A DNA stretch of 64,000 nt from Podarcis pityusensis (taxonomy: Eukaryota), in the NCBI GenBank assembly GCA_964106645.2, contig OZ067051.1. The stretch is one strand, 5' to 3'. The translations under genes were made by a program, and so were the position numbers. Positions 12,301 to 58,894 of the stretch are shown here, one piece after another. A model generated the notes under the pieces. That model was not told the DNA's origin, did not search any database, and worked only from the letters and a program-made list of their open reading frames with translations. Positions within the stretch are counted from its first letter, which is position 1, and every line of letters begins with the position of its first letter.

Positions 12301-14983
12301 TGTCCTTTGGCTATGTGGTCTGGAAAAAGCTTTCTCCTGCCGTGGTGGCTTTAAAATGGGCTAAGTTGATCTGCGTCTCAAGCACAATACTAGCAGGGTG
12401 CTTCAATCCCTGCTTGTTATAGAAAGAGGAGAGTACGTTTTAAAGTCCCTCTTCAAGAGATTGCTATTTACTGGCTTTTTGTTCAGAATAAATCCTAAAG
12501 AGGAGATGGGGGATGTGGCAGTCATATTCCTGGTCTTCAAAACTGAGGTAGCTTTTAAAAGAGTCTACCCCCGTCCAAGTCAAGTAAACAAGATTGCTCC
12601 TTGAATCTTGTTTTGCATGGTGTACCTCACCGCAGCATCAAAAGTTTTAAAATTTCAAAGCAGCTTGAAATGTTTTGTCCAAATTGACTGATAGCCATTT
12701 TGCAGTGGGCTTTTCTTGGCTTCCCAGGAGGGAATGTGGAAACTATTTCAATAGCACCCCCCCCCCCACAAGCACTTTTTGATTTAGTGTGTATTGATCT
12801 GCCCTGCTGATGTTCTCAGACATGCTTTCAGTAGCATCCAATATCTTAATCCTTGCTCATAGTCTGCTAATGAATACAGCAGTGTGTCCTGTTCTGGTTG
12901 ATGACCTCTTAATGTTGCCTCTCTTGCTGCTTGTGTTTCTGGAGTTCCGCTTTTACATTTGCTTTGGACCTTGCATATTGTGATTGGGAACTGGTTTTGC
13001 GAATACGCATTAGGAAGGCCATCAAGGTGTATCAATTGTGGCTGTTCCTTTGAAACACGTGGGAGCAACAACAGGGAAATGACTGGATCTCCTTACCATG
13101 TATCTTGAAGGGGGAGGAGCCGTAGCCTTGTACATCTGGGGCAGAACAATCTAACCATAGGAGTCCAGTGTCATTTATGCAAGGGTAAAATCTGCCCGAA
13201 TGCTCCTTTTTTGAGACTAGTTCCAGCTGAGCTGGGTTGGATGATGGACTGGTGCATCTCTGACTGAGCTGGAATGAGGGGCTTTACCTAGCTGAGCCCT
13301 GACTCAATTGGAGATCCACCTATTCCAAACTCTTGGCAGATCAGATATTGGGTTTGGATTGCTCCCGAAATGTATCTAAATGTGGGGAATCACTTCCCTA
13401 ATGCAAAATATATGTATGTTCAAGTCATTACACTAGTTCAATTCAACAGGACCTGCAGGAGAGCTGGCTGTGGCCACCCACCCACAGTGAGACAAGTAGA
13501 ATAAAACAGCAAAATGTTCATAGTAGAACACTGAAAGGGAGCAGGGAATGTGGTGCAGTATGGCATTGGTAGCACTGTTTTGCGTGTTGGGAGTGAACCA
13601 AAGAGGATCTCCCCTTCATTTATTTGTCTTCCTCTAGTCACAGACCCGTGAAGGATCCATAAGCAAAACTGCAAAGTACTGCTGGTTCAGAAAATGTTCT
13701 GAATTTCTAAACTTGAAAGAGGTAGGATCTGTTTTCCCTCCCAGGCCCATTAATTTCTAGTGTGAGTATGGATTGGTTAATTTCCAAGCTCCATGTAGCT
13801 AAATGGTCCCACTCTCCAGGTTGGTGTTTTGGAAACCTTCCTCAGGAAAGCTTTTTGCCTTCAGAAACTGGCCTCTGAAAAAGTAGGTACACTTTGCTTG
13901 CAGGAACAGTCCTGTGATGTTAATTCTTAATGTCAGCGGCCACCTTCAGACTTTGGCCAGTTATACTGATAACACACACTGCTTTATATCATTGGAAAAC
14001 GTGGTCAGTTTTGAGGAAAATAAATAAAAGGATGAAGCTGTTCTCAAGGGAGGGAAAGACAGTAAAAGTCAAGATCTGGTTGCCACTACTTGAGGGTCTG
14101 AAAGTGTTGTTTTGTGTAGTGTCCAGTACCAATCCCATGATCTTTATCATCACCAAAAGCAACACCAAACTTTTTTGTGTGAGATTTCTAAACTGCCCTT
14201 CATCAAGGGGATCCCAGGAACTCAATATGGAAAATTGTCTGGAAAGGAGCTCAGCCAGACCCTGATATGGTGACCTGCCATCATTTTTGAAGCATTTGGT
14301 GCAGAAGTTCCTATCTAGCCCATGTGATTAAGGAATAAAGTTTGAAAACATGTGGCTAGTGCCTGCTGTGAAGGCTTAGTTACCAAAGGGATTTTTGGAC
14401 AAGTCTTCCCATCGTAACAGGTTTCTGTACTATGACGAGTCTCCCAAATCAGTTGATAATTTTCATGCGCTCATGTAACCTGGCCCTCTAATGCCTGAGT
14501 TCATGTTGGAACAAGGCTAGGAATATTGTGACTCAAACAAATTTTGTATGGGTGTCCTTAAATTCGGAGCACAAGATGTTGATGTCCTCAGTGCACTATA
14601 ACAGTAAAATAAGAAGTGCAGAACAACAGGTTTATGACCACCAAGTAAATAAGACCTGAACTGCTACTAGGCTAGTAAAAAAAAGTGAGTGTATGTGGTT
14701 TCTATGGGGGAGGGGGTCAGTTCCCTCTCTGCTGGACCACTGTGGGTTGTGCCCCCCCCCCCCCCCCGCTGGTTGTAGAGCCTTTTCATCCTCTGCAGTT
14801 AGTACAGAAACCACGCAGAGGAGGATCAGTCATCCTTCCCTTTACTGCCAGGCTTGCTTGCCTAGAATTCTTAATTTGGCTACAGCCCCTAGGCAAGCTT
14901 ATAGGTTGTACTGATGGGGGGAAGGCAGGGAGCAAGGCCAGTTCACAACCCTCAAGTAACTCACTTGCCTTTTCTTCCGACAG

Positions 14984-15500
14984 GGTCACCTTGTCTGCCA
15001 CGGACTGTTACATTGTTCACGAAATCTACAACGGCGAGAATGCTCAGGACCAGTTTGAATACGAGCTGGAACAGGCCTTAGAGGCTCAGTACAAATACAT
15101 TGTGATTGAGCCCACGCGCATTGGGGACGAGACGGCCCGCTGGATCACTGTTGGGAACTGCCTGCACAAGACGGCCGTGCTAGCGGGCACAGCCTGCCTC
15201 TTCACCCCCCTGGCTGTTCCCGTAGATTATTCCCATTACATCTCTTTGCCTGCTGGCGTCCTCAGCATAGCCTGCTGCACCCTCTATGGGATCTCTTGGC
15301 AATTCGACCCCTGCTGCAAGTACCAAGTGGAGTATAATGCCTATAAACTCTCTCGCCTGCCCCTGCATACACTCACCTCCTCCACTCCCGTGGTTCTGGT
15401 GAGGAAGGACGACCTGCACAGAAAGAGACTGCATAACACGATAGCACTCGCTGCCCTGGTGTACTGTGTAAAGAAGATTTATGAACTTTACGCCGTATGA
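14984..15500 (+). CDS. TMEM11: TMEM11 coding exon 2
   Basis: Acceptor ttttcttccgacag|G, then VTLSATDCYIVHEIYNGENAQDQFEYELEQALEAQYKYIVIEP...KKIYELYAV*, near-identical to vertebrate TMEM11. Total CDS 71+517=588 nt, 195 aa. Confidence 0.97.
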
Positions 15501-29941: not shown

Positions 29942-30526
29942 TAGGTATGCTGTGGTCTAAACCACTGAGCCTCTTGGGCTTTCCGATCAGAAGGTTGGCG
30001 ATTCGAATCCACGCAACAGGGTGCGCTCCCGTTGCTCTGTCCCAGCTGCTGCTAACCTAGCAATTCAAAAGCATGCCAGTGCAAGTAGATAAATAGGTAC
30101 TGCTGTGGCGGGAAGGTAAATGGCATTTCCATGTGCTCTGGCACTTGTCACAGTGTCCCGTTGCACCAGAAATGGTCATATCATGCCGGCCACATGACCT
30201 GGGAAGCTGTCTGTGGGCAAATGCCGGCTACCTTGGCCTGAAAGCAAGATGAGCTCTGCAACCCCATACAGTGGTACCTCAGGTTACAGACACTTCAGGT
30301 TACAGACTCCGCTAACCCAGAAATAGTACCTCGGGTTAAGATCTTTGCTTCAGGATGAGAACAGAACGGCGGCAGGCCCCATTAGCTAAAGTGGTACCTC
30401 AGGTTAAGAACAGTTTCGGGTTAAGAACGGACCTCCAGAACAAATTAAGTTCTTAACCTGAGGTACCACTGTATTAGCTTTTGCCTGAACTTAACTGTCC
30501 AGGGGTCCTTGACCTTTTACCTTTAC
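29942..30526 (+). mobile_element. Sauria SINE interrupted by a MITE
   Basis: tRNA-like head, core gcaagtagataaataggtac, (ACCTTT)n tail. Split at TA 30267-68. Confidence 0.8.
30269..30471. mobile_element. Tigger/pogo-like MITE
   Basis: TIRs CAGTGGTACCTCAGGTTA / TAACCTGAGGTACCACTG, TA TSD. Confidence 0.85.
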
Positions 30527-32640: not shown

Positions 32641-32975
32641 TGTGGGTTAAACCACAGAGCCTAGGGCTTGCCAATCAGAAGGTTAGCGGTTCGAATCCCC
32701 GTGACAGGGTGAGCTCCCGTTGCTCGGTACCTGCTCCTGCCAACCTAGCACTTCGAAAGCACGTTAAAGTGCAAGTAGATAAATAGGTACCGCTCCGGCG
32801 GGAAGGTAAACGGTGTTTCCGTGCGCTGCTCTGGTTCGCCAGAAGCGGCTTAGTCATGCTGGCCACATGACCCGAAAGCTGTCTGCGGACAAACGCCAGC
32901 TCCCTCGTAAAGCGCCGCAACCCCAGAGTTGGCCACAACTGGACCTAATGGTCAGGGGTCCCTTTATCTTTACCT
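32641..32975 (+). mobile_element. Sauria SINE
   Basis: Same head, core and ACCTTT-like tail as the other copies. Confidence 0.8.
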
Positions 32976-38042: not shown

Positions 38043-38400
38043 CTAAACCATTGAGCGTCTTGGGCTTGCTGATCGGAAGGTCGGCAGTTCGAATCTGCGC
38101 AACGGGGTGAGTTCCCATTGTTTTGTCTCAGATTCTGCCAACCTAGTAGTTCAAAAGCACACTAGTGCAAGTAGATAAATAGATACTGCTGCGGCGGGAA
38201 GGTAAATGGCATTTCCGTGTGCTCTGGTACTCGTCCCGGGTGTCCCGTTGAGCCAAAGCAGTTTAGTCATGCTGGCCACATGACCCGGAAAGCTGTCTCT
38301 GGACAAACGTCGGCTCTCTTGGCCTGAAGCGAGATGAGTGCCGCAACCCCATAGTCGCCTTTGACTGGACTTAACTGTCCAGGGATCCTTTACCTTTACC
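38043..38400 (+). mobile_element. Sauria SINE inserted into an older tRNA-derived SINE (37930-38042)
   Basis: Core gcaagtagataaatag and tail cctttacctttacc. Confidence 0.75.
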
Positions 38401-48884: not shown

Positions 48885-49010
48885 ATGAGTCCGCCGGCCG
48901 CCGGGTGCTGCCATGTGACCGGCTTCAAGGTGGAGAACTGGAAGCAGAACCTGAGGGTGATCTACCAGTGCTTCGTGTGGAGCGGGTCGGCCGAGACCAG
49001 GAAGCGAAAG
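48885..49010 (+). CDS. USP22: USP22 coding exon 1 (ubiquitin carboxyl-terminal hydrolase 22; gene continues beyond the window)
   Basis: [42 protein letters not shown]|gtaagg matches the USP22 N-terminus. Phase-0 donor. No exon 2 (AKSCICH...) was found before 64000. Confidence 0.93.
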
Positions 49011-56397: not shown

Positions 56398-56725
56398 ATG
56401 GTACGCGGGTGGCGCTGTGGGTTAAACCACAGAGCCTAGGACTTGCTGATCAGAAGATCGGTGGTTTGAATCCCCGTGACAGGGTGAGCTCCTGTTGCTT
56501 GGTCCCTGCTCCTGCCAACCTAGCAAGTAGATAAGTGCAAGTAGAAAATAGGTACTGCTACGGCGGGAAGGCAAACGGCGTTCGCCAGAAGCGGCTTAGT
56601 CATGCTGGCCACATGACCCGGAAGCTGTACGCTGGCTCCCTCAGCCAATAAAGGGAGATGAGCGCCGCAACCCCAGAGTTGGTCACGACTGGACCTAATG
56701 GTCAGGGGTTCCTTTACCTTTACCT
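56398..56725 (+). mobile_element. Full-length Sauria SINE with 14-bp TSD
   Basis: TSD TACCACTTGCAGGG at 56384-56397 and 56726-56739; (ACCTTT)n tail. Confidence 0.85.
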
Positions 56726-57135
56726 TACCACTTGCAGGGCAGTTCCCCTTAGCTATGTCCTGTACAAATAATTAAATATTCGTTCACATTAAAGAACAGA
56801 CATTAGTCCATAATCAAGCTTTGCTTTGAGTTCACATAGAATATTTTGTTGATAAATGTGAACTTGTGAACTTTATTAATCAACATTAATCAACATTCTA
56901 TTTCAGTTTCTCTCATCTGTTCTCTGGTTGCCTTGCCTGTGGTTTAATGGGTTTGAAATTAACATGCCTCTGTCTAGGAATCTTGAGAATCATCAGTGAT
57001 GTCAGTTCAGTTTTCAGAAACATTTCCCAGAAGTTACAGTAATATGTGAAGATTTTGAGATGTGGCATATCAAAGGTATCAGTCTCCAGAGTAGTTGGTA
57101 CTCTTTCAGGCCGGAATAAAGTAGCCAGATACTAT

Positions 57136-58020
57136 GTAAGGTAAAGGGACCCCTGACCATTAGGTCCAGTTGTGGCCGACTGGGGTTGCGGTGCTCATCT
57201 CGCTTTATTGGCCGAGAGAGCCGGTGTACAGCTTCCGGGTAATGTGGCCAGCATGACTAAGCCGCTTCTGGCGAACCAGAGCAGTGCACGGAAACGCCGT
57301 TTACGTTCCCGCCAGAGCGGTACCTATTTTTATTTTTTTTTAAATTCTCAAAGCTTTATTTGTTGTTGCATATCTTGGCCAGTAGGAATAACATAGCATT
57401 GATTAAAATTACATTTTGCTTAAGGTAATTTATGCCGTTGACGGCAAAGCATAATCTTCCAAGTACTGCTTTTCCAAGTAGATATGGCCTCTGCGTATGT
57501 GTGTCTTTTTCTTAAGGGAAGATGGCAGCCAGCAGTGCTCCACCAGCTGTCACTGCAGCTGTGGTAGCAGTGGACAGCCCAGCAGCACCGACTGACTGAA
57601 GCGCGGCATCCAGCGCTCCCAGCTGCTACTCCTCCACCATTGGCGATGGCCGCTGCCGACATCATTTTTGCAGCCAGAGAGCCAGCTGCAATTCCAGCTC
57701 CAGTGAAGCCTGCTGCTCCCAGTGCTACTGGTACAGCAATCGTGGCCACTGCCAAGCCGGCTGCACCTCCCAAAGCTGCAATTACTGGAACGCCCACCAT
57801 GTTGGCTTTAAGAGACCCACGCCTCTCCTCGGAGATCTGCAGCTACTTCCACCAGAGCGGTACCTATTTATCTACTTGCACTTTGATGTGCTTTCGAACG
57901 GCTAGGTTGGCAGGAGCAGGGACCAAGCAATGGGAGCTCACCCCGTCGTGGGGATTCGAACCGCTGACCTTCTGATCGGCAAGTCCTAGGCTCTGTGGTT
58001 TAACCCACAGTGCCACCCGC
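57136..58020 (-). mobile_element. Sauria SINE split by the IFI27-like retrocopy
   Basis: The 3' half (57136-57329) and 5' half (57852-58020) are contiguous in the SINE sequence once the insert and one TSD are removed. Confidence 0.85.
57330..57851 (-). pseudogene. Processed pseudogene (retrocopy) of an IFI27/ISG12-family interferon-inducible gene
   Basis: Intronless CDS 57800-57512 (MVGVPVIAALGG...GFTGAGIAAGSLAAKMMSAAAIANGGGVAAGS / LDAALQSVGAAGLS...AIFP*) with a 1-nt frameshift near 57610. AATAAA at 57360-57355, poly(A) remnant at about 57327-57341, 18-bp TSD at 57312-57329 and 57852-57869. Confidence 0.9.
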
Positions 58021-58894
58021 TGAAGTTTCTAGTATAAAAAGTTGAGAATTAAAGACTATCCTTATGACTTTGAGGAAACTCGAGGTCTCCCTAATTCAGT
58101 CCTTGGCATTGCAACATTTCTGTTTCATCCCCATTGTTTACCTAGTTGCTACTTAAAATATCTTCAGTGGATGAGATTGCTAGGCAACCTGTTACATTGC
58201 CCAGTTCTGAAAGCAGTTACTAATAATTTATATTAAATCTACTTTTCTGTACACACTCTGGGGCCACTGATAGTACCAGCAAACATTGATCTTCATGGCA
58301 GCCTTTTAAATAATTGAAGATCAGATTTCACATCTCCCTTTGCCATCTCAAACTGCTTCTTTTGTGTGCCAAACCTACTTGGTTTCATCTACTTATATCA
58401 TTTGTCCAGCATTCTATAGACTCTTTAATCAACCTCTTTGCTCCTCTGAATCTTCCCAATCGCTTTATTGATGTGGTATCAAAAAAGATGCATGTATCTA
58501 GCCTGTATATCAGGAATATTGTGAATTCTTTTCATTTTCAGAGTACTACTTCCTTTGTTGCAAGCTACACTGTTTCGTCTAGTCACTGTAGCAGAACCTT
58601 GCATCTAGAATACCTGATTCATTGTTTGTGGACTGTAGTACCATTATGAAAATGACTAGCAAGCTAAATTGTTGGCTTGCCATGCAGTAATAAATTCCTT
58701 CTTGGCCCTTTTGTAGCATTTACCTCAGATTTTTTTGCTCTTTTTTGTGTGCAAAATATTAAAGACTATAACAAAGAACATGCAAAGCTACATAGATACA
58801 TGTGCTTTATGCATACAGTGTTGTATAGAAGAGAATGTCAAAATTTAGGAATATTCTTTTAGTAGAAATGTGCACTCTGGAAGCAGATGCAGTA

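Follow-up and report, generated by a model that had tools for sequence, protein, structure and literature searches.

A 64-kb stretch of the Podarcis pityusensis genome (the window; G000:C14:10230001-10294000) carries on its minus strand what is very probably a young processed pseudogene: the mRNA of a five-exon IFI27/ISG12 gene that was copied in the germline or early embryo, likely by LINE-1 (L1) acting in trans, into an older SINE, and that is probably a decaying copy with no function. In all, six processed ISG12 copies are present in the genome, on C14 (the copy in the window), C7, C3, C17, C11 and C1, of which only the first was known from the sequence-only reading of the window.

Structure of the ISG12 retrocopy, its parents and its host SINE

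A DNA search of the genome and Pfam identified the insert and its surroundings. The parts of the locus are listed in window coordinates.

57330..57851 (minus): processed IFI27/ISG12 (IFI27L2A-like) retrocopy of paralog P2 type, 522 bp
57817/16, 57785/84, 57752/51, 57589/88 (minus): exon joints inside the retrocopy, from alignment to P2
57852..57869 (minus): 5' target site duplication (TSD), 18 bp of SINE-internal sequence
57312..57329 (minus): 3' TSD, 18 bp, identical to the 5' TSD
57801..57851 (minus): 51-nt 5' leader, from exon 1 and the first part of exon 2 of the parent
57512..57800 (minus): former CDS, 289 nt (95 codons, stop and one extra base)
57609..57611 (minus): copy-specific +1 frameshift with adjacent substitution (GTT to GGAT)
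57420..57800 (minus): 126-aa ORF, 63 ISG12 residues followed by 63 of the parent's alternative frame
57405..57408 (minus): first T4 after the SINE head, a predicted Pol III terminator, 614 nt from the head
57355..57360 (minus): polyadenylation signal AATAAA; an A8-T-A run starts 13 nt further 3'
57330..57341 (minus): poly(A) remnant, of which the parent locus templates only three A
57870..58020 (minus): 5' half of the Sauria SINE, matching other SINE copies of the window
58015-58005 (minus): A box of the host SINE
57962-57952 (minus): B box of the host SINE
57138..57311 (minus): 3' half of the Sauria SINE with ACCTTT-type tail, matching other SINE copies of the window
48885..49010 (plus): USP22 coding exon 1, followed by GT; intron 1 runs from 49011 beyond the window

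The near full-length ISG12 cDNA described by the sequence-only reading, with its 51-nt leader, Kozak ATG, 289-nt CDS, 3' UTR, AATAAA and A-tail, was re-found in every part, and so was the identity of the TSDs around it: all 18 of 18 letters are equal, where a uniform model expects about 2e-5 such pairs by chance in 1.6 kb. The start codon stands in the context GCCAAC-ATG-G at 57800, behind a leader that is slightly 5'-truncated relative to the C3 copy. The last three nucleotides of the 5' TSD (TGG) equal the three nucleotides upstream of the copy start in the parent, a microhomology. Membership in the Ifi-6-16 family was confirmed by a Pfam match to residues 13-63 of the 126-aa ORF (E 3.4e-16), which scores 59.3 bits where the cut-off is 29.1 and covers positions 3-53 of the 84-position profile.

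Searching the genome's own DNA with the insert gave 18 matches, and 11 of these are parts of exons from a group of three C8 genes. Two of the genes, P1 and P2, stand in tandem and P3 lies inverted about 90 kb away; all three have five exons, GT-AG coding introns and intact ORFs of 94-95 aa, and tblastn of the surrounding 158 kb found no fourth ISG12 gene near the cluster. The P2 protein equals annotated proteins of P. muralis and P. lilfordi. All four P2 introns (2977, 1127, 946 and 103 bp, all GT-AG) are missing from the C14 copy, in which the five P2 exons are joined exactly. The intron-containing parent that the sequence-only reading presupposed thus exists as a multi-exon cluster, and the C14 copy is of P2 type; introns lost at exact joints, an A-tail and an 18-bp TSD bear out the claim that a multi-exon ISG12 transcript was retrocopied. 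Between P2 and P3 lies a 379-aa frame of a rhodopsin-family GPCR (L032:8685-9821). The exon-1 donor of P3 reads AT (G000:C8 ~27775495, L025); the C11 retrocopy shows that splicing once took place there, and a possible substitute donor lies about 35 nt downstream.

The host element is one that we take to be a Sauria SINE, a name that comes from the sequence-only reading and the tail type. Both halves that flank the insert match other SINE copies of the window, in agreement with the proposed insertion into the middle of a SINE. The host SINE shares the orientation of the insert, and its head begins 5 nt short of the other copies. Further Sauria SINE copies in the window lie at 29950-30266, 32641-32970, 38044-38396 and 56405-56720, at 6-17% from their local majority line. 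The ACCTTT tail type is that of the Sauria SINE in PMC13295347.

The host gene is presumably USP22, judging from a zf-UBP domain, a TMEM11 exon and the human sequence and synteny. Its zf-UBP exon 2 lies at C14:10309233, 15 kb beyond the end of the window, and the insert therefore sits within a 30-kb intron 1, antisense to the host gene, so that its poly(A) signal cannot truncate USP22 RNA. Coding exon 1, the zf-UBP exon 2 and the TMEM11 exon thus support the USP22 intron 1 location given before. Exon 1 of the host gene gave no Pfam match, and exon 2 gave 0 matches against PDB. The TMEM11-type exon (window 14679-15497, plus strand; Pfam Mito_morph_reg, E 1e-75) is consistent with USP22 synteny. 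On the USP22 sense strand (window 57330-57430, plus) the reversed poly(A) forms a tract rich in T. AG dinucleotides stand at 57352-53 and 57381-82, and a donor AAG/GTAATT follows at 57425 within the insert. The insert may possibly supply a cryptic USP22 exon, a candidate of either 71 nt (frameshifting) or 42 nt (starting with TAG).

Frameshift, order of events and likely agent of the insertion

In the assembly, the frameshift is the only disabling change in the C14 copy. It is missing from all three parents and from the four other retrocopies that keep that stretch; C1 is deleted there. Set against IFI27/ISG12 proteins, the C14 copy keeps only positions 3-53 of the 84-position profile and is without the C-terminal hydrophobic segment, the second of the ORF, so that a complete Ifi-6-16 domain is absent. 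The tail that replaces it is not hydrophobic and has no Pfam match. The sequence-only reading had called this tail a novel C-terminus, a description that did not hold: the same alternative frame is already open in the three parents (62-89 codons) and in four retrocopies (57-65 codons; C1 is without the anchor). The 126-aa ORF is therefore no meaningful novelty. We also considered its C-terminus as a selected feature and rejected this, since its length is inherited from the parent's open alternative frame.

Among 24 listed sequencing runs, 20 contain the stretch wholly or partly, and the list names no RNA run among them. Contigs of four DNA runs were compared with 56750-58750: none of the four shows the extra base at 57610, a result that carries no weight for its absence, since such contigs collapse minor multi-copy variants, and no listed contig piece, from assemblies that collapse multi-copy sequence, spans the SINE-insert junction. 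The "skip" joints in these contigs derive from other SINE copies, not from an empty allele. In one DNA run a contig crosses two exon joints without differences, at a depth of 47.6, where the flanks have 17-22, as would be expected if two processed loci of C14/C7 type contributed. Very improbable is the reading in which an assembly error or a private mutation accounts for the extra base, so that the locus would be an intact 95-aa retrocopy, a potential retrogene. The base is indeed the sole disabling change, and the near-identical C7 copy is intact, but the C14 frameshift is complex (an insertion plus a substitution) and lies outside a homopolymer. The flanks differ from the contigs of one run at 0 of 413 and 0 of 754 letters, suggesting an accurate assembly, and even an intact C14 copy has no evident Pol II promoter.

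Aligned with nine other rows, which represent eight distinct copies, the host SINE departs from their majority line at 23 of 341 sites (6.7%). The insert, about 515 bp between identical TSDs, has three private events, namely two UTR changes and the frameshift together with its substitution. These data indicate that the SINE inserted first, and it was already present when the mRNA arrived, because the TSD repeats SINE-internal sequence. The insert appears young, of an age of the order of the flank differences between related organisms (about 0.7% and 1.7%). Across 439 sites it differs from P2, P3 and P1 at 12, 14 and 17, respectively, and from the C7 retrocopy by four substitutions and the insertion, a pairing with tree support 88/87. 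Two derived bases that no assembled parent has are common to C14 and C7, and in both the UTR is a mosaic of parent states. The direct source allele of the C14 copy is, by this comparison, missing from the assembly; we infer from the shared bases and the mosaic UTR that the source was another P2 haplotype, or P2 before it was overwritten by gene conversion.

A full-length L1 lies 7 kb downstream in USP22 intron 1, sense to the gene (G000:C14:10294903-10301012; L026:903-7012). It has two open frames, a poly(A) tail and a 14-bp TSD. Its 1248-aa endonuclease/RT ORF2 matches human L1 ORF2p along its length with E 4e-175, while R2 proteins reach E 3e-23 or weaker. Its 3' end is 98-100% identical in 40 of 40 scored matches (of 4048 first-look candidates), and by these measures the element belongs to a young, intact, high-copy family. 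The assignment to L1 comes from the ORF2 match: the Pfam L1 ORF1 families PF02994 and PF17490 gave 0 of 19 and 0 of 14 candidates in the genome, and ORF1 of the neighbouring L1 had no informative match in PDB. For a survey of L1 TSDs 30 loci were fetched, 21 of which extended past the fetched flank, leaving nine usable; six of these nine have TSDs of 9-18 bp at loosely A-rich sites. The site of one L1 copy, GAT/AAAA, resembles the C14 site, GAT/AAAT, within a lizard L1 preference that is loose and based on seven sites.

According to PMC13295347, Bov-B and Sauria insertions bear a "Tn-TA" signature, a TTT about ten bases upstream of the TSD. It occurs at none of the five ISG12 sites with a TSD and is present at our control, a SINE inserted in the C11 copy. 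An L1 family with like TSDs, the A-tail and the lack of Tn-TA make L1 target-primed reverse transcription the best-supported route, and mobilisation in trans by an L1-like LINE, as the sequence-only reading had proposed, is most likely on the same grounds. L1 is thus the most likely agent of the C14 insertion, by the marks it would have left. The L1 endonuclease would have nicked 5'-ATTT/AT-3', the poly(A) tail would have primed reverse transcription, and the 5' end would have been joined through the 3-nt microhomology, with the frameshift arising during or after insertion. Landing in a SINE would have been chance, as SINEs are abundant and this one offered an A-rich site.

Other readings start from the host SINE. 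It is extremely unlikely that Bov-B (RTE) machinery mobilised the mRNA, or that template switching fused it to SINE RNA, to yield one composite retroposon. The C14 copy does lie inside a Bov-B-dependent SINE and in the same orientation, but its TSD is SINE-internal sequence and requires a pre-existing SINE, it ends in poly(A) and not in a microsatellite tail, and neither a Tn-TA signature nor a second composite was found. Among the 18 insert matches (best candidates scored), only C14 is flanked by SINE halves; a SINE-ISG12 chimera has not spread as a new family. In relation to the Sauria SINE (Squam1)/Bov-B pair, the host element shares the A and B boxes and the ACCTTT-type tail and serves here as target, not vehicle.

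A functional transcript is very improbable as well. The Pol III promoter of the SINE would drive a chimeric RNA of about 615 nt, or an antisense transcript would arise, either being regulatory for ISG12 or USP22 or encoding a truncated ISG12 with a new tail. Both Pol III boxes, A and B, are intact; downstream of the SINE head no ATG precedes that of ISG12, and the first T4 comes 12 nt after the stop codon of the 126-aa ORF. A chimeric Pol III RNA is therefore possible; it would be without the SINE tail. This layout, however, follows from a chance insertion in sense orientation, and the parent already has the T4 as well as the open alternative frame. Moreover, the SINE head is 5'-truncated in an element diverged by 6.7%, only one of the six ISG12 copies lies within a SINE, and Pol III RNAs are uncapped and poorly translated. 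In favour of an RNA function, human IFITM4P is reported to have a non-coding role (PMC10415907). The locus is best explained as a probably decaying L1 processed pseudogene: like known L1 processed pseudogenes, C14 shows intron loss, a poly(A) signal and tail, a TSD, an A-rich target and, in the assembly, a disabling mutation. It is no different from them in kind; that it lies within a SINE whose Pol III head is intact is incidental.

Sister retrocopies and the transcripts they preserve

Five of the six ISG12 copies have TSDs of 10-18 bp; around the C1 copy no TSD was found, the best candidate being 7 nt. ORFs are open in C7, C3 and C17, whose Ifi-6-16 scores are 85-90 bits, and frameshifted in C11 and C1. 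The C3, C17, C11 and C1 copies each stand 6-12% from the parents, indicating that copying was repeated over a long time. The most likely explanation for six copyings over a long period would be that the short (about 0.5-kb) ISG12 mRNA was steadily abundant in germ-line cells. Counting private changes and omitting those shared by chance with another row, we found 31 non-synonymous and 7 synonymous changes in the four older copies, against 185:82 sites, and thus no sign of purifying selection, as expected for decay. The two intact older copies, C3 and C17, have 9 non-synonymous and 3 synonymous private changes against the same 185:82 sites, which are small counts. A test of the retrocopy ORFs for purifying selection, as in functional retrogenes, was therefore negative, and comparison of four retrocopy ORFs with a protein collection found no exact sequence.

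Five of the six copies begin with exon 1 of the P2/P3 type, and C7 begins with that of P1. The C7 retrocopy (G000:C7 ~68692813-68693400; L002:1401-1990) has a 16-bp TSD and an intact 95-aa ORF, which is 98% identical to a P. muralis IFI27L2A-like protein and sits behind an overlapping upstream ORF of 26 codons. It consists of P1 exons 1-2-3 followed by P2 exons 2-5, joined exactly at splice sites. The simplest reading is that C7 likely records read-through splicing between the neighbouring paralogs P1 and P2; the same junction might possibly have come from a haplotype with a deletion, or from template switching at 3 nt of homology.

Exon 1 of P1 lies within a multi-copy interspersed repeat (45 matches) that is missing from the corresponding place of P3. 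First exon, TATA-like box and splice donor all fall inside the repeat (G000:C8:27663440-27664280; L019:8440-9280). The predicted P1 promoter is thus repeat-derived, and the C7 copy shows it to have fired in the germline. Less than 1 kb upstream of the P1 first exon stands a Copia-type LTR element (G000:C8:27658809-27662871; L019) with two 469-bp LTRs that are 100% identical and a 933-aa gag-protease-integrase frame that has no RT in frame; it is apparently a very recent insertion.

The C17 retrocopy (L004:1501-2001, G000:C17) is older and has an open 94-aa ORF, the N-terminal type of which resembles a Lacerta agilis protein and not the present parents. Annotated 109-aa IFI27L2A proteins, one in P. 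lilfordi on a 41.6-Mb chromosome and one in P. raffonei on a 42.1-Mb chromosome, share this N-terminal type and the upstream frame, and their start codon lies in the TSD-derived flank. With these shared features they are probably orthologues of the C17 copy, the frame of which would then be open in three Podarcis genomes. Of 94 residues, 1 and 7 differ in these C17-type proteins, while P2 shows 0-2 differences, which suggests that C17 may be under relaxed constraint. The reverse nesting occurs on C11 (L005:1149-1492, G000:C11), where a full Sauria SINE with a 10-11-bp TSD and the Tn-TA signature sits in the 3' UTR of the ISG12 retrocopy.

Interferon, retrocopy frequency and significance

The sequence-only reading had inferred an interferon-stimulated source transcript. 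An ISRE-like motif, GAAANNGAAA, is found at -156 of P2, upstream of the copy start, and recurs in the promoter of P3, which is 72% identical and carries an additional motif, GAAANGAAA; against the ISRE consensus, such a match has about an 8% chance per 250 bp at the local density. Upstream of P1 exon 1 there is no ISRE match. The inference is thus supported indirectly: ISRE-like motifs are conserved upstream of parent exon 1, but basal germline expression explains the copy equally well. A purely interferon-driven reading is weakened by C7, as its RNA came from a promoter without an ISRE. The C7 copy shows that at least some germ-line ISG12 RNA arose from a promoter with no recognisable ISRE.

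As controls for retrocopy frequency we used Pfam profile searches of the genome, the counts of which are lower bounds. RPL21 has at least four near-full single-piece matches among 7, GAPDH at least two loci with long unbroken pieces among 7 matches, and RPL36A at least one full match among 9; CD225/IFITM has 0 of 34 single-piece matches in the same kind of search. Six ISG12 copies from three parents are, next to these four controls, high and not extreme. A general germ-line ISG programme was considered as well and finds no support in CD225/IFITM (0 of 34). Unlikely, too, is a reading in which interferon-type induction and L1 activity fall together in lacertid germ lines and make ISG12 mRNA a preferred passenger of L1, and in which C17, C3, C7 or the SINE-driven chimeric RNA of the C14 locus may have been kept as antiviral or regulatory retrogenes. 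If this were true, the six copies, five of which begin in the exon-1 type with ISRE motifs upstream in the parents, would amount to dated fossils of interferon responses in the germ line of a reptile.

PMC3136929 gives 404 retrocopies for Anolis and a retrocopy number that tracks L1 across the other chordates tested, and RCPedia includes a lizard (PMC11387616). Our search, which left most subscription journals outside, found no literature on IFI27/ISG12 retrocopies or lizard ISG12; the retrocopy lists of PMC3136929 and RCPedia might include IFI27 copies of lizards. The closest parallel is primate IFITM3/IR-IFITM: according to PMC10415907, this is likewise a short interferon-family mRNA from a homogenised tandem cluster with repeated scattered or intronic copies, some of them intact and others broken, and its retrocopying was proposed to follow from germline abundance, induced or constitutive. 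The lizard case concerns another family (Ifi-6-16) and a reptile.

The C14 locus is an ordinary processed pseudogene whose family has a mildly unusual history, and the notable part is the six-copy series and the likely read-through fossil, not the locus itself. Podarcis protein sets list intronless copies as IFI27L2A genes, and such copies will take up RNA-seq reads that belong to the genuine ones. The copies preserve transcripts unseen in the assembly, namely a missing ISG12 allele, an older Lacerta agilis-like N-terminal type and a probable P1-P2 read-through RNA driven by a repeat-derived promoter. Of the mRNAs tested in this lizard, that of a small immune-gene family belongs to those retrocopied more often, in parallel with IFITM3 of primates. 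Its six copies, which can be dated, provide a small test that could tell constitutive from induced ISG expression in the germ line.
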